Shown here: positions 5,842 through 52,265 of the stretch, in pieces
Layout of the letters: each line of letters begins with the position of its first letter
Numbering within the stretch: position 1 is the stretch's first letter
IMG/VR virus record: IMGVR_UViG_3300045988_159706
Reading direction: 5' to 3' (one strand)
DNA from: a virus
Length of the DNA stretch: 64,000 bases
The notes under the pieces: generated by a model
What the model saw: only the letters and a program-made list of their open reading frames with translations
Told to the model about the DNA's origin: nothing
Database searches by the model: none
Program-made: the position numbers and the translations under genes

Positions 5842-6213
5842 ATGGCATGGATATACAGAGATAAAAATGGAGACTTAATGTTCTCCAAAGTAAAACCTGA
5901 AAAAGTTTATATTTTCAGATTTAAAAATTATGAAATTCATAAAGAATCAGAAAGTAAATATTTTATTGGGGATCGTAATTATATTTTTACAGTTAAAATA
6001 TTAGAATCTTATTTTCAACATCCTGGATATTATGAACTAAAAAGTTTTGATGGAGAGGAAGTATTAAGAAAAATTTATATTCAAGATGTTATTTTTGAAG
6101 GAGACTACACTATGGGTTTTCCTGTAGAATTTAAACCTGAGACTATTTCTGCTTTAAAATCTATTGTTGATTTAGAGAATCTTACTATTGAGGATGGATT
6201 AATTGAACTATAA
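5842..6213 (+). CDS. Hypothetical protein
   Basis: 123-aa ORF with TAA stop overlapping the next ATG (TAATG). No recognisable motif. Confidence 0.55.
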   Translation: MAWIYRDKNGDLMFSKVKPEKVYIFRFKNYEIHKESESKYFIGDRNYIFTVKILESYFQHPGYYELKSFDGEEVLRKIYIQDVIFEGDYTMGFPVEFKPETISALKSIVDLENLTIEDGLIEL

Positions 6214-6476
6214 TGAAAGAGATTAAAATTAACAATAACATTGAAGAAGATCATGTTCCTTTATATAATCCTGAAGGTAAGTTAGTTGGAATTATAGAAA
6301 ATGAACTAGCTTTTAATGATGTTCGTATTCAAATCATGGAAAACAAACTAAGAGGGTACTATATTGTATATAAAGGTCAGGTATGTCGAATAGATATTCA
6401 TGGAGAATTAGATATTTGGCCTAATGACTTATATAGGACAAATGTAGACCAACTATCAAAATTATTATGCTTTTAG
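6213..6476 (+). CDS. Hypothetical protein
   Basis: 87-aa ORF coupled to its neighbours. TAG stop. Confidence 0.55.
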   Translation: MKEIKINNNIEEDHVPLYNPEGKLVGIIENELAFNDVRIQIMENKLRGYYIVYKGQVCRIDIHGELDIWPNDLYRTNVDQLSKLLCF

Positions 6477-6477
6477 T

Positions 6478-6672
6478 ATGAAACAAATAAAAACATACTG
6501 TCCAAATTGTGGTAGGGAAACTATTCATGTTATTTATACAGAAGATGGAGATGGATATGGGGCTTCTGGTGTAGCAAGAATTTTTTCAAGTTTACTTTCC
6601 CTTGGAACGTCTAATTTAGCTTGTACTACATATAGTAAGTGTATTAGTTGTGGAAAGACTAAAGAATTATAA
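6478..6672 (+). CDS. Small zinc-ribbon protein
   Basis: CPNCG...CISCG Cys pairs at both ends of a 64-aa ORF. Confidence 0.55.
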   Translation: MKQIKTYCPNCGRETIHVIYTEDGDGYGASGVARIFSSLLSLGTSNLACTTYSKCISCGKTKEL

Positions 6673-6678
6673 CTAAAT

Positions 6679-7077
6679 ATGGGAACTATAGTAAAACCTT
6701 GTGATGATTACCTTCATATGTTAGAGATTCGTAAGTTACTTGAATCTAAAATAAAGGAGTTACATAATCCATGTATTCCCAGTATGTGGAGCCCTTTATC
6801 TATTTTAAGTGTACTTAATCATAAACTATTTTGTAGAGTTATATACAATGCTGTTTGCTATAGTATAGCAGAACGTAATCAGAAAAATATATCATCTAAA
6901 TATCTTGTGGCAGACATTTCTGTTATTGATGCTTTGTGTATGCATTTAACTGAAGAATGTCCTGGATTTGAAACTCCTAGATATTTATATAAAGTAAATA
7001 TTCTTGGAACAGTACTAGAGGTTATTCAGGACATTCCAAGACCAAATAAAGATAAATATAATTTTTTAATATTATAA
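6679..7077 (+). CDS. Hypothetical protein
   Basis: 132-aa ORF with TAATG coupling to the next gene. Confidence 0.55.
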   Translation: MGTIVKPCDDYLHMLEIRKLLESKIKELHNPCIPSMWSPLSILSVLNHKLFCRVIYNAVCYSIAERNQKNISSKYLVADISVIDALCMHLTEECPGFETPRYLYKVNILGTVLEVIQDIPRPNKDKYNFLIL

Positions 7078-7409
7078 TGAAAACACTTCTTTGGGTAGAT
7101 GATGCTCGTAATCCAATGGAAGATGATTGGATGAATTTTAGTCCAATTGGCAGAAATTGTAAAGTTGTATGGGCTCAATCTTACCAAGAAGCGATTGATT
7201 TTCTTGAGAAAGAATGGCCTGATGCAATTTGTCTAGATCATGATTTAGGGGAAGAGAAATCTGGATATGATATAGCTAAGTATATTGTGGATAAATGTAT
7301 AGATGAAGGATATATTCTTCCACAATTTGCAAGTCAATCTGCAAATCCTGTTGGTAGAGAGAATATTCTTTGTTTATTAAAAAACTACAGTAAACAAAGA
7401 CTCATATAA
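7077..7409 (+). CDS. Receiver-like (cREC/REC-fold) domain protein
   Basis: LLWVDDARNP...ICLDHDLGEEKSGYDIAKYIVD...SQSANPVGREN matches the phage/RNA-repair-associated receiver-like family pattern (vDD...lDHDLG...G.d....hS.NPvG). Confidence 0.55.
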   Translation: MKTLLWVDDARNPMEDDWMNFSPIGRNCKVVWAQSYQEAIDFLEKEWPDAICLDHDLGEEKSGYDIAKYIVDKCIDEGYILPQFASQSANPVGRENILCLLKNYSKQRLI

Positions 7410-9493: not shown

Positions 9494-9583
9494 GCGCCTG
9501 ACCCGAGGCGGGGGGGAGGTCTTCAAAACCTCTATGCTGTTGGTCCATCTTCAGCCCTGTGGGATCGTTACCTACCAGGCGTG
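9494..9583 (+). tRNA. Opal-decoding tRNA (anticodon TCA) with a long extra arm and G73
   Basis: Acceptor GCGCCTG/CAGGCGT. Anticodon stem GAGGT/ACCTC with loop CTTCAAA (UCA). About 25-nt extra region with GCTG/CAGC stem. T arm GTGGG-ATCGTTA-CCTAC. Discriminator G. The D region is G-rich and non-canonical. Confidence 0.75.
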
Positions 9584-9600
9584 CAAGTAAGAAGTAAAAT

Positions 9601-24412: not shown

Positions 24413-25102
24413 ATGGGAATGTATGATGCTACCAGCGCGGCTCGTGCTGAGGTTAAACCCGCAGCGAGTTATTTGCGTGCAGGTATTCACAATGTAAGAT
24501 TCACTGGTGTTGAGAAAGGAACTAGCGAATATTCAACAATTGATTTTTCCTTTGAGGGTGTTGATGAAGGAGAAGTAGGTGCTCTTCATAATGAGCGTAT
24601 GTTCGAGCCTAAGTCCTCAGAACGTATGCCTAATCGTTTCAATTCAGCTATTACTGATCCTTCTCAGGCAGAACAGTTTATGTGTAAACTTATGCATATT
24701 ATTGCTGCACTAAATCCTGCTGCACATAAAAAGATTCAAGATGGGACTGCCAAGTTTGCACCAAGTGATTTCGACACTCTTATTAAACTGGTTAAGAAGA
24801 TTCTCGATCCAGTAGTTGGTACAGAGGTTCAGATTAAACTTCTGCCTAATGGTCGTTTCTGTGGTTTTCCAGGATTTCCTGCAAGAATCAGCAAGAATGG
24901 AGATCTCTTCTTGAGTACTTCATTCATTGGGCAGGATCTAACTTTATCTGCCTATGAAAAGGCACAAATTGATAAAGCAAACGCTGCTCAGCCTACTAAT
25001 ATGACTAATACTGGTTCTGAACTCGACAGCATGCGTCGTGATATTGATGAATTGGAAGAAGAGAGTTCCAGTTCAATTGATGACGACGATTTGCCTTTCT
25101 AA
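24413..25102 (+). CDS. Single-stranded DNA-binding-like protein with acidic DDDDLPF tail
   Basis: C-terminal SSSSIDDDDLPF. GC-richer codon usage. Located between the Sak4-like ATPase and the primase. Confidence 0.55.
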   Translation: MGMYDATSAARAEVKPAASYLRAGIHNVRFTGVEKGTSEYSTIDFSFEGVDEGEVGALHNERMFEPKSSERMPNRFNSAITDPSQAEQFMCKLMHIIAALNPAAHKKIQDGTAKFAPSDFDTLIKLVKKILDPVVGTEVQIKLLPNGRFCGFPGFPARISKNGDLFLSTSFIGQDLTLSAYEKAQIDKANAAQPTNMTNTGSELDSMRRDIDELEEESSSSIDDDDLPF

Positions 25103-25116
25103 ATTTAGAAGTTTAG

Positions 25117-26160
25117 ATGCAATTTACATTAGGACCGACCACTGTTACTAAAGAACTAATTCTGAACAGTGTAAGTGAAGAAACTTTAATGGAGCATTAT
25201 TTAGGAGTCCCTGTGAAAAAGGGACTCCTAAAATCTCCGTTAAGACAAGATAATAAACCCACTTGTGCTTTTTATAGAAACAAGAAAGGAGATCTTATAT
25301 TTAAGGACTTCCGTGGTGATTTTTCAGGTAATTTCATTTCGGTTGTAATGTATAAATTTCAATGCTCTTACGGAAAAGCCTTAAATATTATTGCTAATGA
25401 CTTTGGAATAGTCTCTCGACCTAAACTGCAAGTTAATCCCCCTCTTATTAAATATACAAATAAAAAGTTTGAGGAAACACAAGAAGCTATTATACAAATA
25501 GAAGTGAAGGATTTTGAACAGTATGAGTTAGATTGATGGCTAAAATTTGGAGTTACTAGAAAGATATTAAGGAAATTTAGAATATTTTCCTGTAAGAACG
25601 TTTTTCTAAATGGAAACATATTTCATCTTCATAAAGATAAACAATTAGTTTTTGGATATTTTGGAGGTATTCGAGAAGATATTGAACGCTGGAGAATATA
25701 TTTTCCTGGCAATACAAAGTATAAATTTATATCTAATTGAAAATCTTTTAGGTTGCAGGGAGCACATGCTCTTCCCAAAGAGGGAGGAGAATATCTTGCA
25801 ATTACTAAATCTTTAAAAGATGTTGCATGTTTATATAGTTGTGGTATTACAGCTATAGCCCCAATTTCTGAGAACTGTTTTGTTACAGAGGCTCAATTTG
25901 AAAGGCTAAGTAAAAAATTTAAAAAAATTATTCTTTTTTACGATAATGACTCTGCTGGAATAACTCACATGAATAAGTTTAGAAAACAATTTCCAGATGT
26001 TTATGTGTTATGAATCCCCCGTCATTTTGGCGCGAAAGATATTTCTGACTATTATAAGAAGTATGGTAGGGAAAAAACACTGAACTTAATCGAACAAGCT
26101 AAACTTAAGGTTAATGCCGAAGAAGAAAGAAGAAGAAAGTCCAAAGAAGAAGAGGTCTAA
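25117..26160 (+). CDS. DNA primase (TOPRIM-type)
   Basis: Four standard-code pieces share one frame and are joined by TGA at 25534, 25738 and 26011: YELD-W-WLKFGVT, FISN-W-KSF and YVL-W-IPRHFGAKDISDY. TOPRIM-like LAITKSLKDV and LFYDNDSAG. TAA at 26158-26160. Confidence 0.75.
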
Positions 26161-26509
26161 ATCATACTCTAGAACTAAAGGACATTCATATGAAACTAAA
26201 ATAGCTAAGGAACTTAGGGAATTAGGATACGAAGGAATTGTTACCTCCAGATCTGAATCTAAATCTACTGATGATAAGAAAGTAGATTTGATTGATACTC
26301 AAAACCAATTTCCTTACTATGTTCAGTTAAAGTGTACCCAGAATACTCCAGCATATCATCAAATAAGTGCAGAGTGTCCATTAAAGGATAAACCATTTAT
26401 TTTAATCTGAAATAAACAAGTTAAAAAGCAGACTAATATTTGCTCAGCTGGAGAAGTTGTTATTATTCCTAAAGAAGAATTTTATAAATTAATTAAATTG
26501 AAAGAGTAG
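26114..26509 (+). CDS. PD-(D/E)xK-type nuclease (Holliday junction resolvase-like)
   Basis: GHSYETKIAKELRELGYEG...KKVDLID...YYVQLKC fits E...D...(Q/E)xK. TGA at 26408 is read through to TAG at 26507-26509. Overlaps the primase 3' end in another frame. Confidence 0.5.
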
Positions 26510-26533
26510 AAGAGGGATCTTCTGCTCTTTTTT
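26503..26533 (+). terminator. Strong intrinsic terminator hairpin
   Basis: 11-bp stem AGAGTAGAAGA / TCTTCTGCTCT with loop GGGA, followed by TTTTT. It ends 5 nt before the ATG of the paralog array. Confidence 0.75.
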
Positions 26534-26538
26534 GTTAT

Positions 26539-27045
26539 ATGAAAACATTATTTGTATTTCAAATTCAATCATTTACTAATGTGGTTACAAATAGTTCTAG
26601 TGAGCTGTTTGTATTTACTGGAACCACTGAAGTTGTAAGTGATATATTAGATTCTAATGTTCCAGGATGGGAACACGAATATGATGACCCACAGTCAGTA
26701 CAGGATTTAAGTCCCAGCTCTTTAGAAACTTATCTTTCTTATGCTTACAACAATTATGATTGGAACTGGGACAATAAACGAATAACTAGAGAAACAAGTA
26801 GACAAACTCGTTGGGCTAGAGAATTTAATATTGACCCAAATGATCTTTACAAAAATTATAAAGAGTGGGATCCAAATTCTGAAAAATGGGAAATTTCTCA
26901 ATTACAACTCAAAGAAGGTTGGGATAAACTCATTAAACAGAAACTTAATCCAAACTTAGTTTTTGTTTTTTCAAAGGGTGAAAATCCAAATTGGGAGCGC
27001 CAAGAAGAGATGATGACCTTTGGTTCCCGCTATCATTTAGGATAA
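26539..27045 (+). CDS. Paralog P1 of the ITNSSSE-motif family (168 aa)
   Basis: N-terminal FVFQIQSFTNVVTNSSSELFVF is shared with the next three ORFs. The C-terminus is Trp/Asn-rich and unrelated to the others. Confidence 0.65.
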   Translation: MKTLFVFQIQSFTNVVTNSSSELFVFTGTTEVVSDILDSNVPGWEHEYDDPQSVQDLSPSSLETYLSYAYNNYDWNWDNKRITRETSRQTRWAREFNIDPNDLYKNYKEWDPNSEKWEISQLQLKEGWDKLIKQKLNPNLVFVFSKGENPNWERQEEMMTFGSRYHLG

Positions 27046-27046
27046 T

Positions 27047-27379
27047 ATGAAAATAAAAATAAATATACAATCTGAATCTGATTTAATTACAAACTCATCT
27101 AGTGAGATCTTTTGTGCCATATCTTCTTTATCTGAGGATTCAATAAAGATGGTTCAGGAATATCTTAATTCATTTCTTCCTGATGGTGTTGAGTATTCAA
27201 GTCCTTCTGATATTTTTACAGTAGATGAATCTAGATATGTTATTACGTTTGAGATTAGTTACTCAGAAAATCATGAAGAGACTGGAAGACAGATGTACAC
27301 TTTAATAAAACAATTATTAAAGGAACATTTTCCAGGGGATAATTCATTTACTGTTGAAGATGGAGAGAATTATAATTAA
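27047..27379 (+). CDS. Paralog P2 of the ITNSSSE-motif family (110 aa)
   Basis: N-terminal MKIKINIQSESDLITNSSSEIFCA. Confidence 0.65.
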   Translation: MKIKINIQSESDLITNSSSEIFCAISSLSEDSIKMVQEYLNSFLPDGVEYSSPSDIFTVDESRYVITFEISYSENHEETGRQMYTLIKQLLKEHFPGDNSFTVEDGENYN

Positions 27380-27665
27380 ACTTCAAAGTGTCAGTGATAT
27401 CATTACAAATTCTTCTTCCGAAATCTTTCAGATTAAAGCTAATATGTCAGAACAAACTTTCTATAGAATTTGGCATAATCTTCTAAATAAATATGAAAAA
27501 GGTTGGAAGCATTCTGGAATTGATCATACTTACTTGGGGATTTTTGAAGTAGAAGATGAGTATATTATGCTTAGATTTCCTTCTATGTGTAACATAGGGT
27601 ATGATATGCGTGAAGCTCTTGAGGAACTTTTTGGAGAAGAAAATGTTCAATACTTTAGTTATTAA
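27354..27665 (+). CDS. Paralog P3 of the ITNSSSE-motif family (103 aa; alternative start 27360)
   Basis: N-terminal MKMERIIIKLQSVSDIITNSSSEIFQI. Overlaps the P2 stop by about 20 nt. Confidence 0.65.
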   Translation: MKMERIIIKLQSVSDIITNSSSEIFQIKANMSEQTFYRIWHNLLNKYEKGWKHSGIDHTYLGIFEVEDEYIMLRFPSMCNIGYDMREALEELFGEENVQYFSY

Positions 27666-27963
27666 AATACAATCTGTTTCTGATGTAATTACAAACAGCA
27701 GTACAGAGATTTATACAGTTTGTACAGAATATACTTTAGATAGGTTAAAAGATATTGTTAATAGTATCTTAAAAATCGCTGATTCTACACTTACAGCAGA
27801 TGACTTATTTACCTTTGAATTGGATGAAGAGTCTGATGAGTACTCTGCTTATTATGACAGAGGTTATAAAGTTATTCCGAAGAAAGAAAACTATACTGAA
27901 GCTGCCAAATATTTATCTAATATAATGGATATATTTGAACAAGAAGCTTCTTTTGAAAGTTAA
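27643..27963 (+). CDS. Paralog P4 of the ITNSSSE-motif family (106 aa)
   Basis: Start moved to the internal ATG by homology: MFNTLVIKIQSVSDVITNSSTEIYTV. Overlaps the P3 stop by 23 nt. Confidence 0.6.
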   Translation: MFNTLVIKIQSVSDVITNSSTEIYTVCTEYTLDRLKDIVNSILKIADSTLTADDLFTFELDEESDEYSAYYDRGYKVIPKKENYTEAAKYLSNIMDIFEQEASFES

Positions 27964-27968
27964 TAAAA

Positions 27969-28877
27969 ATGAAAGATTGGAAAGCATGGGGAATTAAGAA
28001 AAGAGTATTCCCAGATAAGAATTATAATGCAATTTGGCACGATTTAAAAACTGTTCGATTAGGTTCTGGGCAAGCTAAAGAATTAGATTATCCAGAATTC
28101 TACGATGTTGGAATTAATACTCTTTGTAATCTAGGATGCCCATTTTGTTATGTTGGAGCTACATCTAAAGGAGTAAATCATGATCATATATGTGAAAAGG
28201 CTAAATTTTTCTTTGGCAGCATGACTGAGAATGAGAAACCTTTTCAGATTGCAATTGGTTCTACAGGAGAACCTACAATTCATCCTGAGTTTTGTGAGTT
28301 TCTTAAAACAATATATAGTTTGGGGATCGTTCCTAACTATACAACTAATGGAATCTCAATAGCCAAATATGATGGTAATGCAGAAGAAATTTTAGAAGCT
28401 ACTTCCAAATATGTAGGAGGAGTTGCTGTTTCAGCAAATACATGGAATCCAGAAATAGATTCTGCTTGGAGAAGTGCTATAGTACTTCTGCATAAATTCG
28501 GGAACACTAATATCAATATTCATTATATAATTAATGATAAAAAGTCTGTTGATGACTTTATTAAAATTTATAATCAATATAAAGATATTGTTCTATACTT
28601 TGTACTACTTCCTTTGATGCCTTCTGGTCGGTCATCAAATAAATACTCGCAAGAAGCATTTGAATACCTTCTTGAACAAGATATAGACTTTAAACAAATT
28701 GCATTTGGAGCACATTTCTATGACTCTTTATGTAATCAAAATAAGTTAGGATGCTATTTATATCCTCCTGAAAGTCTATCTAAAAACCTTATTTTAGGAG
28801 AGAAGATTATGGTTACTCCAAGTTCCTTTAATCTTACTCCTATTAAGGAAATTAATTTCAGTTATGAAAACTTGTAA
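27969..28877 (+). CDS. Radical SAM enzyme
   Basis: GINTLCNLGCPFCYVG is the CxxxCxxC cluster motif. GSTGEPT (GGEP-like) and TTNG follow. 302 aa with no C-terminal Cys-rich SPASM-like region and no TGA. Confidence 0.75.
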   Translation: MKDWKAWGIKKRVFPDKNYNAIWHDLKTVRLGSGQAKELDYPEFYDVGINTLCNLGCPFCYVGATSKGVNHDHICEKAKFFFGSMTENEKPFQIAIGSTGEPTIHPEFCEFLKTIYSLGIVPNYTTNGISIAKYDGNAEEILEATSKYVGGVAVSANTWNPEIDSAWRSAIVLLHKFGNTNINIHYIINDKKSVDDFIKIYNQYKDIVLYFVLLPLMPSGRSSNKYSQEAFEYLLEQDIDFKQIAFGAHFYDSLCNQNKLGCYLYPPESLSKNLILGEKIMVTPSSFNLTPIKEINFSYENL

Positions 28878-29055
28878 AGTAATTTTTAGAGATGAAACTT
28901 TAGCACAAGACAGTATCGTGGATTGTTGGTTAAACGATGTTGGAGATTTAGAGTTTAAATTGTACTTTGATCCTCCAGTAACAGAAACTTCTGACCTTGG
29001 TTCATTAGCTGGACAGTTATGCTATAGTTTCTGTAAAGCTTTAAAGGATGAATAA
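28864..29055 (+). CDS. Small hypothetical protein
   Basis: 63-aa ORF overlapping both neighbours. Confidence 0.5.
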   Translation: MKTCKVIFRDETLAQDSIVDCWLNDVGDLEFKLYFDPPVTETSDLGSLAGQLCYSFCKALKDE

Positions 29056-30145
29056 AATCATATTGTTAAATGCAATTGTTGGAAGTCAGGCGTATGGAAC
29101 AAATACGCCTGACTCTGACATTGATACAAAGGGAGTATATCTTCAGGATCCTATGGAAGTCTTAGGGATGGAGTATAAGGAACAGATTAACCTGGATAAG
29201 GATGCCTGCTTATATGAAGTTAGAAGATTTTTGCAACTACTTTGTAGTGGAAATCCTACAATGTTGGAACTTTTGTATATTCCTGAAGATTGTATTCTAG
29301 AAAAGCACCCTTTGTGGGATATTATATCGAAACATAGAAGTGCATTTCTAACTAAACAATGCTACTTTAGTTTTGCTGGTTATGCATATCAACAAGTAGA
29401 AAAGGCTAAAGGGCTAAATAAGAAAATGAATTGGGAGGCTGATAAAGTAAAAAGAAAAAGGCCAATTGATTTTCTAAAAGTTATTGACAACTGTAAAACA
29501 TATCCTCTTGTTGAATGGTTAAAGCGTAATCAGATGCATGAGGATTGCTGTGGACTTGCTAAAGTCAATGATTCAGAGAATCTTTATGCTTTGTGGTATG
29601 ATGACATTAAAGAAATGTCTAAGACCAAAGACTTGTCTAATCCTAGATATAAAGATTGGAAAGATTTTGGATATAAAGGAGTTTGTAATGATGTTGAATT
29701 ACTACTTTCAGAGATTCCAGAATGGCAAATTCCTATGTGTAGGTGTAACCTTTACTACAATAGGAATGGTTGGGGAGAACATTGTAAAGACTATAATTCC
29801 TACCAAACTTGGCTGAAAGAAAGAAACACACAAAGATATGTAGATATTCAAAATCATGGACAAAAGATCGATGGCAAAAATATGTTACATTGTATAAGAT
29901 TATTACAATGTGCTAATGATATCTTAGATCTTAAAACTATTAATGTTAGAGTTAAGAACCCTGAATATTTACTATCTATTAGACATGGAAAAGTATCCTT
30001 AGAAGAATTACTTGAATCAGCAAGAAATCAAATTAAAGGGTTAAAGCAAAAATTTGAAGACAGTGATTTACCACATTCAGTAGATCCAGATTTAGTCAAA
30101 TCAATATTGAATGAAATAAGAAAAGAATCATTAAATTTGTTTTAA
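29048..30145 (+). CDS. Pol-beta superfamily nucleotidyltransferase (RlaP-like)
   Basis: N-terminal VGSQAYGTNTPDSDIDTKGVYL fits the GS..yG...p.SD.D..gv nucleotidyltransferase signature of the RNA-ligase-associated family. 365 aa, no TGA. Confidence 0.65.
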   Translation: MNKIILLNAIVGSQAYGTNTPDSDIDTKGVYLQDPMEVLGMEYKEQINLDKDACLYEVRRFLQLLCSGNPTMLELLYIPEDCILEKHPLWDIISKHRSAFLTKQCYFSFAGYAYQQVEKAKGLNKKMNWEADKVKRKRPIDFLKVIDNCKTYPLVEWLKRNQMHEDCCGLAKVNDSENLYALWYDDIKEMSKTKDLSNPRYKDWKDFGYKGVCNDVELLLSEIPEWQIPMCRCNLYYNRNGWGEHCKDYNSYQTWLKERNTQRYVDIQNHGQKIDGKNMLHCIRLLQCANDILDLKTINVRVKNPEYLLSIRHGKVSLEELLESARNQIKGLKQKFEDSDLPHSVDPDLVKSILNEIRKESLNLF

Positions 30146-31546
30146 ATGAAATCGGAATTTATTACATTACAATTACTCTCAGAGAGTTTTGAGGATAAAT
30201 TGGCATGACTAGTTGCAAATAATGAAGATAAAGTGTCTAAGTATCTTCTGGAAGCTAATCAATTAATTAAAATTTATACTAAGACAAAAGCAGAGAACTC
30301 TGAAAGTTTGTTTCCAATTCCCGATACTGTTTTAGAAGGGTTTATAAATGCAATTAAGGAAAAATTGTCAGACTATGGACGACAACTAACTCTTAAAACT
30401 GATGCTTTCAAAGTTTCATTTCTTCCTAAAGGCTGTACTCCTGAATATACTAAAAGTGGTAGATGGGCGAAAAAGAATAGACAATCAGGAAAGCCTGGTA
30501 AAATTATACAAAAAGTAATTGGAACTGGCGTCTTTTCTAACTCTGATTATGAAAAATTTGTATATGCTCTTAAAGCACTTTGGTCTTATGGTGGGTATGA
30601 AATTAAATTGGTAGAAGGAGAAGATATTAGATACTGGTATGATTCGGAAAATTATTATGCCATTACTAATACTTTGGGTAATTCATGTATGTCTCATAAA
30701 GAATGTAGTGGTTATTTTGATCTCTATTGTACACAACCAGAGTGTCGAATGCTGGTTGCATTAAAGGAGGACAAATTAGCAGCGAGAGCTTTAGTATGGA
30801 CCATTGGGGATAAAACCTTTATGGACCGTGTTTATTATATAGAGGATTCTTTATATAATATCTTTGTTAACTATGCTAAAGAAAATAAATGGTATATCCG
30901 AGAGAGTAATTGCCTTCTTAGTGATGGTGACAATCAAGTATTTTTATCTCCAAAGGATAACTATACTGAACCAGTAACTGAACGCTTTGTTTTGAACTTA
31001 GTTAAGATTTATCCTAAATGGCCTTATATTGATAGTTTTAGATATTTAGATCTTGAGAATAAGGTCTTAACAACATATCGAAGATGTAATTCCTACACAT
31101 GCTCGTTTACAGATGGAAATTACGAAGATTCAGAGGATTGGGACGAAGACTATCAATGTGAGAATTGTGGGTGCCAATATAGTAACGATGATGAGTTAGT
31201 GTATTCAGAATACTTTGATACATTAGGATGTACTTCTTGTATGTCATGGTCAGAAATTATGCAAGATTGGATTCCAGACAGCGAAGTTGTCTACGTTAAA
31301 ATTGATGACGCATGCCACAATGGTGAAGTTTGTTGTAGTCAGTATCTAGCATCGCATCCAGAAAAATATGTCTATATTGAAGGTTCCTGGTACTCAACAG
31401 AATTCAAAAGGATTTGTAAAAATCAGGATGGGGATTGGATAGTTATACATCTGGATGAAATATCCACTTCACCAGATATGTTTAGTGTGACTCCGTCTAT
31501 TTCTGCAGCATCTGGAAACTATATTATTGACCCTAGAACATATTAA
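30146..31546 (+). CDS. Uncharacterised large protein, paralog family B (see 13583-14959), with C-terminal Cys clusters
   Basis: ATG at 30146 is in frame with ORF 30233 through one TGA (DKLA-W-LVAN). Shared block LGNSCMSH...YFDLY...MLVALKEDKLAARALVWTIGDKTFMDRVYY. CENCGC...CTSC lies near the C-terminus. Confidence 0.65.
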
Positions 31547-35060: not shown

Positions 35061-35790
35061 TGGCAAATCAACACGAATTAATTCAAAAGATTTTCTTTCA
35101 ACAGAAGACTATGTAAAGCCTTTTATTGAAGAAATGAGTAAATTCACTTCTACTTATAGAATAGAAGCTATCCCTCCCTCTCAAGTTACTACAGATAAAG
35201 AAGGAGAGGATATTACCTATAACAGGGTATTAGTGCAGGCAATCATGCCTACTCAAATAGATGAGTATAATGAAATATATACTTTGGCATATTCTTTAGA
35301 CATAAGAAGGCCTATTTATAAAGTATATAAAGCGATGTTTAATAATACTACTAATTCAATAATTGCATTTGATCCAAATTGATTGGTAGTTAATGAAATT
35401 AAACCAGCAGAGACTTTTACACTTCCAATTCAAAACTTAATGAGTTTTACAAGTGACTTTGAAGTTAAACTCAAGAAATATAAAAACGATACTTTATCTA
35501 CCAAAGAAAACGATCGTTATGTAAGACTGGGTTCTTGGATTGAAAAATGTCAATTTGCAGTATGGCAAAATGACTTTGGAGGAAAGGTTAAATGGTCTCC
35601 AACAAATGTTGTTAAGGCTTATAATAACATTTATATAAATACATCAAGTGATTATTATGTTGGTGATAAGGACTCATCTGTAATTAATACATATAATTCA
35701 TTTGCACAGCTAATTGCAGATGATAAAAAAGATATTTGCAATAAGTTTGAGAAAACTATGCTAATTAATTCATTATTAGGATTAAAATAA
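35032..35790 (+). CDS. Hypothetical protein (252 aa)
   Basis: ORFs 35032-35382 and 35383-35790 share one frame and are joined by TGA 35380-35382 (FDPN-W-LVVNE). Confidence 0.6.
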
Positions 35791-38033
35791 TGACAGTTGA
35801 ACAATGGTTAAATAATGACGAATTAGCTATTACTATCTGGAAGAATAAATATAGGTTTGAAGATGAATCACTAGACGATTGGTTCAAAAGAGTTTCTGGA
35901 GGTAATGAAATTGTAGAAGAACAGATCAGAGCTAAAAAATTTATTTTTGGAGGTAGAATCCTTGCTAATAGAGGGTTATCTGATAAAAATAGAAAAATAA
36001 CATATTCAAACTGTTATGTAGTTGCTCCTCCTGAAGATAATCTTGAATCTATTTTTGAGTGTGGGGCAAAGTTAGCAAGAACATTCAGCTACGGGGGAGG
36101 TTGTGGAATTGATATTTCTAATTTGAGACCTTCTGGAGCAAAAGTTAATAATGCTGCAAAAACTACTTCTGGAGCTGTAAGCTTTATGGATTTCTATTCA
36201 TATATTACTGGACTGATTGGTCAGAGTGGTCGTAGGGGAGCACTAATGATTTCTATTTCTTGTGATCATCCAGATCTTGAAGAGTTTATTGAGATTAAGT
36301 CTGACTTAGATAAAGTTACAAAAGCTAATATCTCTGTTAGAGTTAGTGACAAATTTATGGAAGCAGTTGTTAAAGGTGAAACTTTAATATTGAAATTCGT
36401 AACTGATACTGGTGAAACAATTACTAAAGAGGTAGAAGCATATCCTATTTTTAGAAAGCTTGCTCAAATGAATTGGGATTATGCCGAACCTGGTATATTG
36501 TTTTGGGATAGAATAACTAGCTGGAATTTATTATCAAATAATAAGGAATTTTCTTATGCAGGAGTAAATCCCTGTGCTGAAGAACCTCTGCCAGCTGGAG
36601 GGAGTTGTCTTCTTGGAAGCATAAACCTTGCAGAATTTGTTACAAAAGAAAGAAAACTTGACCTTAGTTCCTTAAGAGAAACTATTCAAGTTGCAGTTAT
36701 TGCTTTGAATGAAGTTCTTGATGAGGGTCTTCCTTTACATCCTTTACAAGAACAAAGGGATTCTGTAGCAGAGTGAAGGCAAATTGGCCTTGGTGTTATG
36801 GGTCTGGCTGACATGCTTATTAAATTAAGAGTTAAATATGGTAGTACTACTTCTAGATCCATTTTAGAGTCAATTGGACATGAATTAATTATGACTGCTC
36901 TAGAGACTTCTTCTATTTTAGCTGTCAACTGTGGACCATATCCTAAATTTAATCGTGATTACGTTATACGAACTCCTTTCTTTAAGAATTTAGATTCTGG
37001 GGATATGAATGACTTACGTTTCCAAAGTTTGCATGATGATATATGTAAGTATGGTTTACGCAATTCTCAATTACTTACTTGTGCCCCAACTGGCAGTATT
37101 GCAACTATGTTAGGAGTATCCACAGGTTGCGAACCAATTTTTGCAACTTCATATACACGTAAAACTGAATCATTGGTAAATGAGGAAAAGTATTATAAAG
37201 TATATACCCCAATTATAAAGAAGCTTATTGATGAAGGGTTTTCTGAAGAAACTTTACCCGAGTATGTAGTTACATCAGAACAGATTCCATATAGAGAAAG
37301 AATTAAAGTTCAAGCAACTTTACAGAAGTTTATTGATGCTTCTATTTCTTCTACCATAAATCTTCCAGAGTCAGCTACTATTGATGATGTAGAAACTATT
37401 TATAGATTAGCTTGGGAGGAAGGTTTAAAGGGTGTTACAGTTTATCGTTCTGGATGCAAAAGGGGTGCAGTCTTATCAAAGAATCCCGTAATTAAAGAAT
37501 GCCTAAAACGTCCTGAATCTGTTGAAGCTAAACTAATTAGATTTAAGAATGGTTCTGAAAATTGGATTGCATTTGTAGGTCTCATTGACGGAAGGCCTTA
37601 TGAAATCTTTACTGGAATTAATAACATTGAAGATTTCCCGATTCCTACCTCAATAACTGAAGGTGAAATTATCAAAGTAAAAGACTCATTAGGAAAGCGT
37701 TATGATTTTCAATATACTGATAAGTATGGATATACTAATCGTTTAGGAGGACTTTCTCGCATCTTTAATCAAGAATACTGGAATTATGCTAAATTAATAT
37801 CTGCTTTATTAAGAGGTGGTATTGAATTAGATAAGGTAGTTAAGATTATTGATGGAATGCATTTTGAGTCAGATACTCTAAATACTTGGAAGAATGGTGT
37901 AAAGCGTGCTATTAAAACTTTTATAGTTGATGGAGTTACTTCACATGAAGTTTGCCCAGATTGTGGTGAGCATTTGATATACGAAGGGGGATGTACTATA
38001 TGTAAAAATTGTGGGTTTAGTAAATGTGGATAG
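35790..38033 (+). CDS. nrdJ: Ribonucleotide reductase, class II (adenosylcobalamin-type) with C-terminal zinc ribbon
   Basis: Two pieces share one frame and are joined by TGA 36774-36776 (SVAE-W-RQIGLGVMGLAD). GGGCGIDISNLRPSGA, TSGAVSFM, NPCAEEPLP..GSCLLGSINL, CAPTGSI, SSTINLP and GLKGVTVYRSG. C-terminal CPDCGEHLIYEGGCTICKNCGFSKCG. Confidence 0.8.
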
Positions 38034-44330: not shown

Positions 44331-44746
44331 ATATTTATGTAGAGAAATTGTATCAGGCTTGAATTAAATATAAAGGAGTTAGAATTCTTGTAGACTATGA
44401 TGATACAATTAAACCGTATAATACAGCTTCTGAAGCTCTTTGTAAAGACATAATTAATACTTTAATTGAAGCCCAAGAACTAGGAGCTACGGTAGTTCTA
44501 TGGACCTGTAGATCTGGGACCCGTTTAAAGGAAGCTGTAAATTATTGTAAATCTGTAGGATTAGAATTTACTGATGTCAATCCTGTAGAACCTTTCTTAC
44601 CAGGGTATTCTATGAAAGCCTATGGTAATATACTACTTGATGATAAAGCTGGATTAGAACAAGCTTTAACTACATTAAAATTAGCATTATACAAATATAA
44701 AAAGTTCGTTTATGAAATTAACGAGAAGCAAAGATTGCAATCCTAA
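44321..44746 (+). CDS. HAD-superfamily phosphatase-like protein (141 aa)
   Basis: ATG at 44321 with one TGA read through (YQA-W-IKYK). ILVDYDDT is a DxDxT motif. TAA at 44744-44746 overlaps the RNA ligase start region. Confidence 0.5.
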
Positions 44747-46091
44747 CTACCTTGCTAAGATTGTACAAATTGATTCATTTAGACCTCACCCTAATGCTGA
44801 GCGTCTAAAGTTAGCAACTGTTGATGGATATATAATTTCCACATCAATTGATTCTGCAGAGGGAATCTATGTATATTTTCCTGTTGAATGTGTTATCAAT
44901 TCCGACTTTTTGAAGGTTAATAATCTTTACAGAAAAGCAGACCTTAATCTTGATCCTACTAAACAAGGATTTTTTGAAGAGTCTGGTCGAGTAAAATGTA
45001 TTAAACTAAGAGGACTTGCCTCAGAAGGGCTTATCATGCCTATCTATGAGTTGTGTAAATTTTCTGGAGAAGGAATTGCAGAACCTATAGATTCTGTTGA
45101 AATGTCAAAATTAGTAGGAACAGAATTTGATACTGTAAATGATAAATTGTTTGTCTGGAAATATGTGATTCCTACTAAAGCTTCTAGTGGAGGAATTAAT
45201 GGCTCAGCTAAAGAAAAGAAGAAAATTCTTAATATAGTTGATGATCAATTCCATTTTCACATCGATACAGAACAGTTACAGAAAAATATTCATAAGGTTC
45301 AGCCAACTGATATTATTAATATCTCTTGGAAAGAGCATGGAACAAGTTTGATTCTATGTAACCTACTTACTAAGAAAAATCTCTCTTTAAAGGAAAAGAT
45401 TGCCAAATTCTTTGGAATTCCTGTATCTGAAAATGAATATAAGAAATTCTGTTCATCTAGAAAAGTTATCAAAAATCCTGAACTAAATCCTAGCATGACC
45501 AAGGGATATTACGATTGTGATATTTGGAATCTTGCCTTCGAAGTATTAAAGGATTACTTATCTAAGGGGCTTTCTATCTACGCAGAAATTGTAGGATATA
45601 TGCCTACAGGATCTATGATTCAATCTGGATATGATTATCAATGTATCTATGATCCTAAAACTTATGAGTATTCAAAAATGACTCCTAAACAAATGTATGA
45701 TGCAAAACTGTTTGACATTATTGTTTACAGAATTACATATACTAATGTAGAAGGAAGAGTTTTTGAATTCTCTACTCAACAAATGAAGACCTTTTGTGAA
45801 AAGTATGGAATTCATTGTATTAAAGAGCTCTACTATGGAACAGCACAACAGCTATTTCCTGAGTTGAATCCCGATGAGCATTGGCATGAAAATTTCTTGC
45901 AAGCATTGAGAGATAAATACTTAGAGAGAGAGTCTGTTCTTTGTAACAATAAAGTTCCCGAAGAAGGAATTGTTCTTCGTAGAGAAGTAAGTGAAATTGA
46001 TGTTTATAAACTTAAGTCAGTAGCATTCCTTGAGAGAGAAACTAAGATGCTTGATAAGGGAGAAGCTGACATTGAATCAGGACAAGAATAA
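44712..46091 (+). CDS. RNA ligase (DRB0094/Rnl5-like, N-terminal OB-like domain)
   Basis: N-terminal LAKIVQIDSFRPHPNAERLKLATVDGYIIST is OB-like. ISWKEHGTSL is the lysine nucleotidyltransferase motif I (K.hGt). 459 aa, no TGA. Confidence 0.65.
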   Translation: MKLTRSKDCNPNYLAKIVQIDSFRPHPNAERLKLATVDGYIISTSIDSAEGIYVYFPVECVINSDFLKVNNLYRKADLNLDPTKQGFFEESGRVKCIKLRGLASEGLIMPIYELCKFSGEGIAEPIDSVEMSKLVGTEFDTVNDKLFVWKYVIPTKASSGGINGSAKEKKKILNIVDDQFHFHIDTEQLQKNIHKVQPTDIINISWKEHGTSLILCNLLTKKNLSLKEKIAKFFGIPVSENEYKKFCSSRKVIKNPELNPSMTKGYYDCDIWNLAFEVLKDYLSKGLSIYAEIVGYMPTGSMIQSGYDYQCIYDPKTYEYSKMTPKQMYDAKLFDIIVYRITYTNVEGRVFEFSTQQMKTFCEKYGIHCIKELYYGTAQQLFPELNPDEHWHENFLQALRDKYLERESVLCNNKVPEEGIVLRREVSEIDVYKLKSVAFLERETKMLDKGEADIESGQE

Positions 46092-48491: not shown

Positions 48492-50482
48492 TGATATATT
48501 TAGTTACTAACGCTCCAGCTTTAATTCAATCTACTAAGTATACATGCATTTCTGTCAAGGAAGCTTTAGGTATGCTGGAGAAATTAAAGATTGTTGGTGT
48601 AGATACTGAAACTGAAGGTTTTGATGTCTATACTAAAAAACTATTATCTCTTCAATTAGGATGTTTTGATTTCCAAGTAGTTATTGATTGTACTACAGTT
48701 AATGTTTTACTATTTAAGGATTATTTGGAGTCGGAACGACTATTTCTTTTTTGAAATGCAAAGTTTGACTTAAAATTCTTATATTATTATGGAATTATTC
48801 CAAGATATGTTTGGGATGGCTATCTTGCAGAAAAATTAATGTGGCTAGGATATCCTTCTGGTATGCATGGAATGAGTCTTAAAGATGCAGGAATAAATTA
48901 TCTTGGAGTAGAACTGGATAAGACTGTTCGAGGTCAAATTATAAATAAGGGTTTAACAGAAGATGTTATAGTTTATGCTGGAACTGATGTTAAATACCTA
49001 GAATCTATAATGGAGAAGCAAAAAGAAAAACTTAAAGAACAGGGTCTTCTTGATGCTATCCGTGTTGAAAACGCATTTGTTAGATGTTTAGCTTATATAG
49101 AATTTTGTGGAGCTAAAATTGATCCAGAGAAATGGAAAAAGAAACTGGAGAATGATTCTAACTTATGTGAAGATTTAATCTGTCAACTCAATAAATGAGT
49201 TGAAGATAATATGGGAGGTAAGTATACAACTGTAAATAGACAAGGTGATCTATTCGATGGATTTGATACTCGTCCCAGATGTCATATTAATTGAAAGAGT
49301 GCACAACAAGTAATTCCTCTTTTTGAAGATCTTGGTTTAAATCTTTCAGTAATTGATCCTAAGACCAAACGTCCAAAAAAGTCTACTGATATTAAAGTTA
49401 TAGGACCACAAGCTTCTAAAAGTCCATTAATTCCTATATTTATGGAGTATAAGAAAGCTGCGATTTTAGTAGATACCTTTGGTGAAAAGTTTTTAGATCT
49501 TATAAACCCAAAAACTGGACGCATTCATGCTAATTTTAACCAGTTAGGCACTGATACAGGCCGATTGAGTTCAACTGATCCGAATCTCCAGAATCTTCCA
49601 AGTGATGCTTTGACTCGCTCCTGCTTTATAGCAGAGCCAGGAAACAAGTGGATCTCAGCTGACTATTCTGGGCAGGAAAGTTTCCTAATGGCTTCTATTG
49701 CTAATGATAAAGCTATGCTTGACGAATTAGTGAATGGTTCAGGAGACTTACATAGCCTAACTGCTAAAATGGTATTCCTTGAAATTCCAAGAGACACTCC
49801 ACTTAAAGCAATTAAAACAAAGTATCATCATCTGAGAAAAGAAGCAAAGGGCTATGAATTCTGTTTTAATTATGGAGGAATGGATAATACTCTTGTTAGA
49901 AATTATGGAATTTCTGAAGAGCGGGCCAAAGAAATCTATACTAACTACATGGAGGGTTTCTCAGGACTGAGAGACTATCAAAAGTTTAGAAGAAAGGATG
50001 TAATGGAAAAAGGATATATACTTTTAAGTCCAATTACTGGGCATAAAGCATATATCTATGACTTTGCTGAACTTAAACGCCTCTGGAAAAAACAATGTGA
50101 GAAAGGATTCTGGGAGTATTATAGAGAAATGAAACGAGATGCCCCAGACTGTGAAACTGTACAAAATGTTAGAAAATTAGCAAAAAGACGTGCAGAATCT
50201 GAAAAGCAAAGTATTAATTATCCAATACAAGCTGCAGGAGCATTGTGTTTTAAGTATGCATCTGTCTTTTTATTCAAATATCTACAAGAGCATGACCTGC
50301 TGTTTAAAGTAAAATATTGTATACCTGTACATGATGAGATTAATCTTGAGGCTCCTGCGGAGATTGCAGAAGAGATAGGAAAAGTTCTTGTACAATGTAT
50401 GGAGAAGGCTGGTGCAGTATTTTGTAAAAGAGCTAAGCTTAGTGCTGATTTAACTATTGGAGATTATTGGATACATGAATAA
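48491..50482 (+). CDS. Family A DNA polymerase with 3'-5' exonuclease domain
   Basis: Three track ORFs, all in frame 2, are joined by TGA at 48752, 49196 and 49292. VGVDTETEG (Exo I), F-W-NAKFDL (Exo II), YAGTDV (Exo III), ADYSGQESFLMA (motif A), RKEAKGYEFCFNYGG (motif B) and PVHDEINLE (motif C). Confidence 0.85.
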
Positions 50483-50735
50483 AATATATGAACTAGTCTT
50501 CTATTGGGAAGATATATACAATGGTTGTGAAATTACTGAAACTATATTAACAACTAGTCGTGAACGTGTTGAAGCGGAAATAGAAGGTTTTAGAAACCGC
50601 AATTTAAAAAATAGAGGTGAGGAAATTAAGCCTTCGCACAATCATTACATCTATGCGTATAAAAACAACAATGTTAAAACATTTATAGACGGTTGGTCAA
50701 ATCTTAAAATATTTGAGCATGATAAAATTAATTAA
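50457..50735 (+). CDS. Hypothetical protein
   Basis: 92-aa ORF overlapping its neighbours. Confidence 0.5.
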   Translation: MEIIGYMNKIYELVFYWEDIYNGCEITETILTTSRERVEAEIEGFRNRNLKNRGEEIKPSHNHYIYAYKNNNVKTFIDGWSNLKIFEHDKIN

Positions 50736-50979
50736 ATTTGGGGCTTCATATTGTGCGCCCTGTCGCGCTATGATGCCTATTCTTGAAGAACTCAAAAATA
50801 AGATAGAAATAGAAGATATCGATGTGGATGAAGTAGATCCTATTGTGTTAACTAATTATAAAATTAGAAACATTCCTGTACTTGTTTTAGTTCAGGATAA
50901 TAAGGAAGTTTGGAGGCACGTAGGAAGTATTTCTAAAGTAGAATTAGAAGAGAAAATTAAAGAATATGAGGCTAATTAA
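50713..50979 (+). CDS. Thioredoxin/glutaredoxin-like redoxin
   Basis: KFGASYCAPCRAM is the CxxC active site. NIPVLVLV is a cis-Pro-like region. 88 aa. Confidence 0.7.
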   Translation: MSMIKLIKFGASYCAPCRAMMPILEELKNKIEIEDIDVDEVDPIVLTNYKIRNIPVLVLVQDNKEVWRHVGSISKVELEEKIKEYEAN

Positions 50980-51418
50980 ACCATCTTTTGAAATACTTGA
51001 GCAGGAACCAGGTATTCAAGGAATATATAAGCAAATTGAGAGAGCAGGGAGAACATGCTATAAATCAGAGGATCATATTACAGAAGACTCAGCAGAGAAA
51101 TTTGTTAATATGATTAAGGATAGACAGCATACTGCTATGCTTGAACATGGCACTGTATATCTTTATATTCATAAGGATCATGCTTACAATGTAATAGGTG
51201 ATAATTGGGTAACTGAACAATACCTTTCTAATTCTTACTCAGTTATTAATACAGATTCTTATGGTAATTATCATATCACAACTAATTACAGAGTTTTATA
51301 TGAAAATGACTGGCTTGACGATTTAAAATATCTCTGTGAACCTACTGAATATCATGAAAAACGAATTACAGTAAAGTTTATTTGTGATCGTGGTGTGTCT
51401 CATGAGTTTGTAAGGCAT
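50966..51418 (+). CDS. thyX: Flavin-dependent thymidylate synthase ThyX, exon 1
   Basis: Ends ...DRGVSHEFVRH with the last exon base T (51418). Standard translation runs into the intron and stops 7 codons later. Confidence 0.8.
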
Positions 51419-51812
51419 AAAATACTTTGTGTCGCATAATAGTAATATTATGAAAAATAAACTCCGTGAATTGCTGGAAAGCTAAACATAAAATGCATGC
51501 TAATCAGCAGCCAAGCACACCTTTAACAAAGTGTGAAGGTTCAGAGACTAACTAATGAAACTATGATAAAATATATTTTTAATTATATATGGTATTTAAT
51601 CCAATTACCTATTTATTTTATACTAATGTGTTGTGTATTTACAATACCATTGGCAGCTATGCTATGGGGATTTGAATTAAAAGGACCAGATAAACCTCAT
51701 AGAATATAATTTAGACACGAGTGCGGAGCATCCAGAAATGGATGATGATATAGTCCGATACTCCTCTGAAAAGAGGAGAGTATAAGATAAAGAGCTTATA
51801 CATAACAAATTG
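51419..51812 (+). mobile_element. Group I intron (394 nt, no homing endonuclease ORF) interrupting thyX
   Basis: Splicing U51418 | ... G51812 | AGA restores VRH-RVFSFAQESTRY, the ThyX RHR..S...ES.RY signature. The core segments CTCCGTGAATTGCTGG, CACGAGTGCGGAG, GATATAGTCCGA and GTATAAGATAAAGAGC recur in the second intron at 54919-55174. Confidence 0.75.
51563..51709 (+). CDS. Possible 48-aa hydrophobic ORF inside the thyX intron
   Basis: MIKYIFNYIWYLIQLPIYFILMCCVFTIPLAAMLWGFELKGPDKPHRI occupies the AT-rich peripheral insertion of the intron. There is no support beyond the ORF itself. Confidence 0.2.
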   Translation: MIKYIFNYIWYLIQLPIYFILMCCVFTIPLAAMLWGFELKGPDKPHRI

Positions 51813-52265
51813 AGAGTATTTTCCTTTGCTCAGGAAAGTACCCGTTACTGTAATTATAGCAAAAATAAGTTTGGTAATGAACTTACTTTTATTATTCCTT
51901 ATTGGACAAATATTCCAGAAGGACAAAGTTATTGGCATGATGGCATTGGGTATCGTGTAGGAGCAGATATTCAAAATAAAGATTTTGGATATATTGAGAA
52001 GTCTTCAAACTATTTTAATTTCTTATCTTCTTTAGAAGAATCAGAAAAATGTTATCTTAGACTATTAAATGAAGGATGGGTTCCTCAACAAGCTCGTTCT
52101 ATACTTCCAAATTCTCTCAAAACAGAGTTAGTAATGACTGGAACCGTTGAACAGTGGAGAGGATTCTTTAAACTTAGAACTGATAAAGCAGCTCATCCTC
52201 AGGCTCAGGAACTAGCTATTCCTTTAAAAGAAGAATTTAAACAATTACATTATATAAATGACTAG
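51813..52265 (+). CDS. thyX: Flavin-dependent thymidylate synthase ThyX, exon 2
   Basis: Begins RVFSFAQESTRYCNY and continues ...ARSILPNSLKTELVMTGTVEQWRGFFKLRTDKAAHPQAQE (ThyX C-terminal R.....a..Ei block). TAG stop. Confidence 0.8.
   Translation, partial: RVFSFAQESTRYCNYSKNKFGNELTFIIPYWTNIPEGQSYWHDGIGYRVGADIQNKDFGYIEKSSNYFNFLSSLEESEKCYLRLLNEGWVPQQARSILPNSLKTELVMTGTVEQWRGFFKLRTDKAAHPQAQELAIPLKEEFKQLHYIND

Follow-up and report, generated by a model that had tools for sequence, protein, structure and literature searches.

Among the radical S-adenosylmethionine (SAM) enzymes that act on dedicated protein or peptide partners, three groups have been described: the maturases of ribosomally synthesized and post-translationally modified peptides (RiPPs), the anaerobic sulfatase-maturating enzymes (anSME) and the activases of glycyl-radical enzymes. 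In the case of anSME, the change of a sulfatase Ser or Cys creates the catalytic residue. To our knowledge, nearly all peptide- or protein-modifying radical SAM enzymes carry a RiPP recognition element (RRE) as well as SPASM or twitch auxiliary clusters. Here, we describe a gene module that is most like these systems and that was found in a 64,000-nt stretch of viral DNA (IMG/VR record IMGVR_UViG_3300045988_159706; the whole stretch is called the window in the following). The source of the window is a crAss-like phage, a DNA polymerase fragment being 57-68% identical to those of cr111_1 and crAss001, and related contigs reach up to about 170-180 kb. At positions 26539-30145 seven co-oriented open reading frames (ORFs) are located on the plus strand. 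The first four (par1 to par4) share a short N-terminal motif, the tag, and are followed by the genes for a radical SAM enzyme, a 63-aa protein and a nucleotidyltransferase. An earlier annotation made from the DNA letters without database searches, referred to as the sequence-only reading, had treated all seven genes as one operon unit. The conserved unit consists of the tagged proteins and the radical SAM enzyme and not of the whole seven-gene operon; the nucleotidyltransferase is limited to close relatives and the 63-aa ORF to related lineages.

To characterize the linkage between tag and enzyme, loci were gathered in three ways: seeded with the tag, seeded with the radical SAM enzyme (at least 52% identity) and seeded with an alignment of the most divergent radical SAM homologues. 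With the tag as seed, a homologue of the window enzyme was present within 8 kb in 71 of 73 IMG/VR loci; the two exceptions were a 2-kb fragment and a 276-kb contig (L192), which harbors the enzyme and two further tags elsewhere. All 80 loci seeded with the enzyme contained two to seven tags on the same strand (upstream of the enzyme in 78, downstream in 2), the opposite-strand background of the tag pattern being 3 matches in 80 loci. In the divergent set, which includes contigs of 372, 435 and 508 kb, one to eight tags were found nearby in 78 of 79 new loci, and the lone exception was an enzyme match that lacks the N-terminal part (residues 53-281 only). Linkage thus holds down to about 36% identity of the enzyme, and the proposal that the array is tied to the radical SAM gene was borne out in all three sets. 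Co-occurrence with the array in related genomes had been named beforehand as the test of the grouping; it holds for the radical SAM gene and breaks down for the nucleotidyltransferase gene. When the ORFs of the first 73 loci were clustered, only the tagged proteins (73 loci) and the enzyme (69 intact, plus split copies) were common to all lineages, and the next-commonest cluster occurred in 33 loci. Gene order is variable, with the enzyme gene before or after the tagged genes and usually overlapping them, and in several distant loci it precedes a single tagged gene. The minimal module consists of the enzyme and one protein of the HLG type, ending in H-L-G-COOH as par1 does (L038, L042, L045, L047). 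Fusions of tag and enzyme were not found. Genes around the module in crAss-like lineages include those for primase, ribonucleotide reductase, a nucleotidase and resolvase-like and PurZ-like proteins. Locus L160 (6001-7902), from a phage contig that also encodes a family-B DNA polymerase, has a tagged gene on each side of a gene for an NAD-dependent epimerase/dehydratase (PF01370), and a radical SAM gene is absent within 6 kb of them.

The tag of the four window paralogs follows the consensus h-x-h-[QH]-S-x-x-D-h-I-T-N-S-S-[ST]-E-h-[FY], with Q10, S11, T17, N18, S19, S20 and E22 fixed in all four. It is encoded at 26563-26610 (+) in par1 (IQSFTNVVTNSSSELF), 27065-27112 in par2, 27381-27428 in par3 and 27667-27714 in par4 (IQSVSDVITNSSTEIY). 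A degenerate DNA pattern for T-N-S-S-S/T-E matched four sites in the window, all of them within the array; 0.14 sites were expected from shuffled sequences, and four were reached in 0 of 100 shuffles. In pairwise comparisons between paralogs, 3-8 of 9-13 identical tag residues are encoded by different codons, including switches between AGY and TCN serine codons, and the nucleotide identity of the tags is 58-75%. As identical residues use different codons between the copies, selection acts on the tag peptide itself, in agreement with the sequence-only reading; a DNA-level repeat or a recent gene conversion was dropped as an explanation after this codon analysis. The claim that the copies do not stem from a recent duplication also stood, since both the codons and the unrelated tag-less profiles of the par1, par3 and par2/par4 families indicate that the paralogs are ancient.

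Across 187 distinct proteins from the IMG/VR loci the consensus is h-x-h-[QH]-S-x-x-D-[VIL]-[IV]-T-N-S-S-[ST]-E-[LIV]-[FY], with N, S and S invariant, and in most of them the tag begins 12-20 residues from the protein start. ITNSS(S/T) is invariant even where the identity of the radical SAM enzyme drops to 36-42%; of the two, the tag is the more tightly constrained. Variants of the tag are concordant per genome, being all Q-S, all H-S or all D/E-N, and the same C-terminal families (fam0, fam1/2) occur in both Q-type and H-type genomes. Since the tags of a genome change together, one shared partner is suggested. In the enzyme alignment, no columns that discriminate genomes with Q-type tags from those with H-type tags were found.

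The radical SAM enzyme of the window (27969-28877, +; 302 aa) matches Pfam PF04055 with 36 bits (cut-off 29.5). It contains the CX3CX2C motif at C53, C57 and C60 (CNLGCPFCY, residues 53-61), the GGE-type motif IGSTGEPT and an NYTTNG motif; in the family alignment the three cysteines are invariant and the two other motifs are conserved. The AlphaFold2 model, calculated from 30 sequences, has a predicted local distance difference test score (pLDDT) of 92.9 and comprises a family-specific three-stranded sheet (residues 10-31), then a partial barrel and then three C-terminal strands. Of the N-terminal sheet, N18, Y19, K27, T28 and R30 are kept across the family down to 36% identity. Searching the PDB with this model gave 62 matches at E ≤ 0.001, the top-ranked of which are radical SAM enzymes; first in Foldseek were SuiB (E 4.6e-9, TM-score 0.63) and EpeE, which both modify peptides. 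Only the three cluster cysteines are invariant, other cysteine columns reaching 30-77%, and therefore the enzyme has no SPASM or twitch cluster; a Pfam match to SPASM (PF13186) was also absent. A PqqD-like RRE was matched by Pfam neither in the enzyme nor in the 63-aa ORF, and the N-terminal extension forms the three-stranded sheet without PqqD-like helices. In the NCBIfam scan many radical SAM models were hit, all far below threshold and including all named maturase models. The viperin model NF038283 scored 26.2 bits (cut-off 180), the structural match to viperin (TM-score 0.60) being no better than those to other radical SAM enzymes, and the NrdG2 model 20.1 bits (cut-off 131). By its sequence motifs and its fold the enzyme is a bona fide member of the radical SAM superfamily and falls into an unnamed subfamily.

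In the distant homologues of loci L063, L045 and L070 the cluster cysteines have a non-canonical spacing (CX4CX2C; CX16CX2C in L070). The enzyme gene is interrupted in several relatives (L005, L007, L043, L060, L055, L071). In L005 and L007 (9441-10623) an interruption of about 1.15 kb without a long ORF sits within the GGE motif (IAIG|STGEPT), and in L043 and L060 the insert carries an ORF of 287-320 aa. Rfam called no group I intron at these inserts; they resemble mobile introns or homing elements, placed in a catalytic site that is conserved.

The tagged proteins form a large family. It comprises 2894 clusters at 90% identity, and an exhaustive HMMER scan of 1.84 billion representatives gave 977 at 50% identity, nearly all matches beginning at protein residues 1-12. 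Among the 187 distinct proteins, lengths range from 100 to 282 aa. Once the tag is removed, the bodies fall into about 25 BLAST families. In profile-profile comparisons no homology was detected between the par1, par3 and par2/par4 families; the only link, at 95% probability, joined the par1 family to the longer fam2 family, with which it has a C-terminal segment in common, and no other pair reached 30%. The bodies had been called essentially unrelated beyond the N-terminus, and these tag-less profiles confirm it. Exactly one member of the par1/fam2 type, ending in the invariant H-L-G-COOH, is present in nearly every locus. In the window it is par1 (26539-27045, +; 168 aa), whose C-terminus is the invariant RYHLG-COOH; further invariant residues among its relatives are P42, W44, E47, Y48, P51, S145, N149, P150, Q155 and R164. 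The small members par2 (27047-27379, +; 110 aa), par3 (27360-27665, +; 101 aa) and par4 (27643-27963, +; 106 aa) can be aligned to a common beta-alpha-beta-beta-alpha pattern.

The number of small members varies even among genomes that are about 95% identical. Most near-identical relatives of the window have three tagged genes and not four: the head of par3 is fused to the body of par4, and the body of par3 is absent. Other hybrids carry the head of par2 or par1 on the par4 body (L004-L016; proteins P0016, P0017 and P0025). These hybrid genes indicate that recombination runs through the tag.

The AlphaFold2 model of par1 reached a pLDDT of 88 and a predicted TM-score of 0.80, with pLDDT values of 90-98 for the greater part of the chain from residue 21 to 168. 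The values remained below 50 at residues 7-18, where conservation is highest, as expected of a segment that needs a partner; the first confident strand, E22-T27, is the second half of the motif. No match at E < 0.2 was obtained for this model in the PDB or BFVD using Foldseek, and weak matches were mostly to small alpha/beta domains (ACT-like or ferredoxin-like). As far as the model allows a judgement, the fold of the tagged proteins matches none known.

The four paralogs were compared with Pfam, PHROGs and NCBIfam as single sequences, which gave only sub-threshold noise. Fifty-five aligned family members and ten long tagged proteins showed no consistent family or fused domain in Pfam, 32 members of the small-paralog families gave no consistent family in PHROGs, and sequence profiles of the paralogs matched nothing in the PDB below E 0.01. 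The profile searches that had been suggested with the sequence-only reading thus place the paralogs in no characterised family. In the literature no relevant description of the tag (TNSSSE), of radical SAM enzymes in crAss-like phages or of phage-encoded ones connected with RiPPs was found, and the array can be called undescribed, as it had been. Resemblances to pyruvoyl-type self-cleavage sites, PP-loops, HAD motif II and PIN motifs were dropped as no model match supported them.

By megablast and tblastn, no relative of the region, of par1 or of par4 was found in 50,697 GenBank phage records, and the enzyme had one weak match there, in Vibrio phage D479. When 185,579 prokaryotic species, each represented by one genome, were scanned with the pattern, the only matches were two contigs of one metagenome-assembled genome, which look like phage DNA. 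From the cellular and GenBank phage searches, the module is, as far as seen, confined to uncultured large phages. The cultured, 258-kb Vibrio phage D479 (OZ195776.1; L076) encodes a radical SAM enzyme of 401 aa (5899-7104) with a weak SPASM-like tail and 25% identity to the window enzyme. On the same strand, 1.4 kb upstream, lies a 132-aa ORF (4140-4538) which starts with MKIRNGFVSNSSSSSFVIT and is an orphan in the protein database. This pair may be a distant analogue of the module.

How does the module compare with the described systems? With RiPP maturases such as SuiB, which acts on SuiA in streptide formation, and the epimerase EpeE, which acts on YydG, it shares tandem genes with a conserved N-terminus and a divergent remainder, located beside a radical SAM gene on the same strand. 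SuiB and EpeE are also the top structural matches of the window enzyme, and the tagged genes are adjacent to and co-oriented with the enzyme gene, as precursor genes are in RiPP clusters. However, the partners are not short peptides: they comprise 100-282 aa, belong to conserved families and, in the case of par1, are confidently modelled as a fold. Further, the invariant residues sit in the 'leader' itself, the enzyme is without RRE and without SPASM or twitch cysteines, no leader protease or exporter is conserved near the module, and the module is restricted to lytic-type large phages. The likeness to anSME is conceptual: there, many paralogous, folded substrates are served by one radical SAM enzyme, whose target is a Ser or Cys within a motif that is invariant near their N-termini. 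However, the tag does not contain the (C/S)-x-(P/A)-x-R motif, the SPASM domain of anSME with its two auxiliary clusters has no counterpart in the window enzyme, and the tagged proteins show neither a sulfatase fold nor a Pfam match to sulfatases. Glycyl-radical activases (PflA, NrdG) are likewise small radical SAM enzymes without auxiliary clusters that act on a loop of an adjacently encoded partner, and the HLG-type protein ends in an invariant Gly. In contrast to glycyl-radical enzymes, the partners here are tiny, no paralog has an RVxG-type motif, the tag is without Gly and the NrdG model stayed below its cut-off. With NF038283 far below its cut-off, the enzyme is also not assigned to the viperin-like group.

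We tentatively favor a reading, somewhat short of an even chance, in which the tag is a shared handle and the probable substrate loop for the radical SAM enzyme. The module would be a phage-specific two-component system of a compact enzyme and a variable set of tagged proteins (100-280 aa). The enzyme combines a single [4Fe-4S]/SAM site with a beta-meander at the N-terminus that is specific to the family, and it is without a SPASM or twitch domain. In the tag, of 16-20 residues, a hydrophobic beta-strand would precede the invariant polar loop D-h-I-T-N-S-S-(S/T), while small tagged members are gained, lost and recombined via the tag, an HLG-COOH member being kept in nearly every locus. The tag strand would dock on the enzyme, plausibly via strand addition to the N-terminal sheet, which would bring the T-N-S-S-S/T loop into the open partial barrel. 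There the 5'-deoxyadenosyl radical could take a hydrogen from one of the Ser, Thr or Asn residues in the loop and so bring about a post-translational modification, for instance the oxidation of a Ser to an aldehyde-type residue, or an epimerisation. The same change would mature all tagged proteins alike. That the tag is the physical link is suggested by its concerted variation per genome, its portability across unrelated bodies and its being unplaced in the monomer model. Chemistry is favored over mere docking because the six invariant polar residues suggest a substrate role for the loop inside the active site, which is the logic of anSME acting on sulfatases or of activases acting on glycyl-radical enzymes. 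The sequence-only reading had offered two roles for the motif; a recognition or modification site for the radical SAM enzyme fits the comparative and structural evidence better than a phosphate-binding element. The tag has no Gly, and among 55 members no Pfam or PDB profile match to known phosphate-binding motifs (P-loop, PP-loop, HAD) was obtained.

The data show that tag and enzyme are genetically linked, that the tag is conserved as a peptide, lies at the N-terminus and co-varies by lineage, and which fold the enzyme has; the physical binding of tag and enzyme, the modification and its chemistry are what we infer. Several points weigh against the tag being a substrate loop. By its lack of RRE and SPASM/twitch clusters the enzyme departs from the pattern of nearly all known protein-modifying radical SAM enzymes. 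In Foldseek, DesII, NifB, GDGT-MAS, BlsE and viperin score close behind SuiB and EpeE, and given the nearly equal scores of viperin, BlsE, DesII and NifB the substrate may be a small molecule or a nucleotide. In the par1 model, the second half of the motif (E-L-F-V) already belongs to the core as its first strand, so that the loop may be an integral active-site element and not a free tag; the alignment behind this model is shallow (23 sequences). In one subfamily Glu is replaced by V or T (ITNSST[VT]IY), two database proteins carry a second, internal tag, the HLG-type gene of the 276-kb phage lies far from the radical SAM gene, and in three contexts tagged genes have no radical SAM gene within 6-10 kb.

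A rather doubtful, yet serious, alternative is that the tag only docks: its strand would recruit exchangeable subunits, an HLG-type core and optional small ones, to the enzyme, and the substrate of the resulting holoenzyme would not be a protein but a nucleotide, a nucleic acid or a metabolite from the programme of replication and nucleotide metabolism. In this case the polar TNSS loop would aid substrate binding while remaining unmodified. Linkage, co-variation and the unplaced N-terminal strand serve docking and modification equally, and the minimal module of one HLG-type protein and the enzyme resembles a two-subunit enzyme. The lack of RRE and SPASM, a likeness to viperin, BlsE, DesII and MoaA-type enzymes that nearly equals that to peptide maturases, and the replication and nucleotide-metabolism genes around the module in crAss-like phages would be in line with such a holoenzyme. 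However, pure docking does not need six invariant polar residues that are fixed family-wide, a number of small paralogs that varies among near-identical genomes is unusual for enzyme subunits, and outside one lineage no candidate substrate pathway is conserved around the module. In another explanation, which we consider unlikely, all tagged proteins could belong to one very divergent alpha/beta (ferredoxin-like) superfamily whose N-terminal strand-loop-strand is a catalytic or ligand site; in the HLG type, S145, N149 and H166-G168 (H-L-G) at the C-terminus would complete this site. The radical SAM enzyme would act in the same pathway without touching the tag. Besides E-L-F-V forming core strand 1 in the par1 model, the invariant residues of the par1 relatives cluster at strand ends (S19-E22, S145/N149/P150, R164-G168), the small paralogs have their common secondary-structure pattern, weak matches to ferredoxin-like and ACT domains and to DUF2179 were seen, and tagged genes without an adjacent radical SAM gene exist. 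Such a superfamily is hard to reconcile with the loss of all profile-level homology on removal of the tag; moreover, neither the His nor the C-terminal motif is present in the small paralogs, par4 being devoid of His altogether, AlphaFold2 leaves the loop unplaced, neither a phosphate-binding nor another known motif family was matched, and the near-obligate linkage to one radical SAM family would still have to be explained.

The shared N-terminus could also send diverse effectors into the prohead and be cut off after the Glu, with the radical SAM enzyme as a mere neighbour. T4 internal proteins and the S/A/G-x-E cleavage sites of phiKZ reportedly offer parallels for this: diverse small proteins, a short conserved N-terminus ending in x-E and a variable multi-gene locus. 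A conserved N-terminal tag on variable bodies, an S-(S/T)-E triplet closing most tags, copy-number variation with tag-mediated recombination, as in arms-race loci, and the unplaced N-terminus of the par1 model agree with capsid targeting. We nevertheless regard it as very improbable, as it does not explain the near-universal, seemingly obligatory adjacency to one radical SAM family in very different phages. The genes are part of the replication module and share the orientation of early or middle genes, the tag is conserved far above usual targeting sequences, one subfamily has S-T-[VT] in place of S-(S/T)-E, so that the Glu is not universal, and the residues after the putative cut form the first core strand.

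Taking the favored substrate-loop reading further, large phages of anaerobic habitats might possess a private maturation system, in which a minimal radical SAM enzyme modifies the T-N-S-S-S/T loop of an expandable, recombining family of small effectors with a novel fold, possibly creating a protein-derived cofactor, with the HLG-ended member as the ancestral client. We hold this extension to be possible, if doubtful. If correct, it would represent a new class of chemistry between radical SAM enzymes and proteins as well as a new phage effector family, possibly with a role in anti-defence or host takeover. If the tag is a substrate, radical SAM protein modification would occur outside the SPASM/RRE pattern; if it is a docking strand, the module would be a new kind of modular radical SAM holoenzyme. 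The pairing is widespread and was described in no database or paper found: the 977 tagged-protein clusters are accompanied by more than 1500 enzyme clusters (90% identity), distributed over crAss-like phages of the gut as well as jumbo- and mega-phage contigs of up to 508 kb, and none of these clusters is annotated or has a cultured representative. As a signature, ITNSS(S/T) at 12-20 residues from the start, beside a radical SAM enzyme of about 300 aa, annotates thousands of viral 'hypothetical proteins' and sets the tagged proteins apart from the unrelated repair gene that adjoins them in the window.

This adjoining gene (29048-30145, +; 365 aa) encodes a pol-beta-type nucleotidyltransferase and is a clear member of the RlaP family (PF10127, 79.7 bits with a cut-off of 23; phrog_388, 1.7e-54), with the pol-beta GS...DxD motif in GSQAYGTNTPDSDID. 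RlaP enzymes extend damaged 3' ends of RNA by one or two nucleotides and travel with RNA ligases (PMC12776372; PMC7824862), and an RNA ligase gene (phrog_968) is present in the same window at 44712-46091. Membership in this RNA-repair family explains the gene itself and not the module of tag and enzyme. Matches to the nucleotidyltransferase occurred in 19 of 73 tag-seeded loci, all of them close relatives; it is a neighbour in this lineage and no partner of the module. The sequence-only reading had also considered the Ser cluster as a target of the nucleotidyltransferase. As this is an RlaP enzyme found only in close relatives, such a role is very unlikely, and it was dropped after the co-occurrence test. 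The 63-aa ORF with four Cys (28864-29055, +), which overlaps the stop codon of the radical SAM gene, is confined to related lineages and is probably accessory or unrelated. Directly 3' of the RlaP gene, a Cys-rich ORF of 437 aa (30233-31546, +) is conserved only in the close lineage and has no Pfam, PHROG or NCBIfam match.

Upstream of par1, a terminator-like hairpin with a 14-pair stem (26500-26531, +) is followed by a T run, the feature extending to 26536. It closes the upstream unit, ends just 5' of the first ATG and is the sole such site in 25000-31000, in accordance with the strong terminator that had been placed there. The four paralogous ORFs are present as proposed, except that par3 likely starts at ATG 27360 (MERIII..., as in homologues such as P0058) and not at TTG 27354. 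In the operon, par1 and par2 lie 1 nt apart, par3 overlaps par2 by 20 nt and par4 by 23 nt, the radical SAM gene follows par4 after 5 nt, and the last two junctions are overlaps of 14 and 8 nt. All seven genes end with TAA. The operon had been described as free of TGA, which is true in frame, whereas the region contains 90 out-of-frame TGA trinucleotides.

Elsewhere in the window and in its relatives, signs of TGA-to-Trp recoding can be read from the sequence. A tRNA with anticodon TCA is located at 9494-9584 (+), and in seven close relatives the 63-aa ORF has an in-frame TGA exactly where the window has TGG (W22). On the minus strand, a frame of 1614 codons (57924-62768) stays uninterrupted only with readthrough of 11 TGA codons, and the reading frame of the ribonucleotide reductase (35769-38033, +) is continuous across one TGA. 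A group I intron (RF00028; 74.3 bits, gathering score 50) was identified at 51409-51778 (+), within the region of the split DNA polymerase fragments (49442-52265). The ORF at 1160-2254 (+) belongs to the PurZ-type family phrog_1211 ('2-aminooxy adenylosuccinate synthetase', 3e-35), which hints at a modified purine (2-aminoadenine) pathway.

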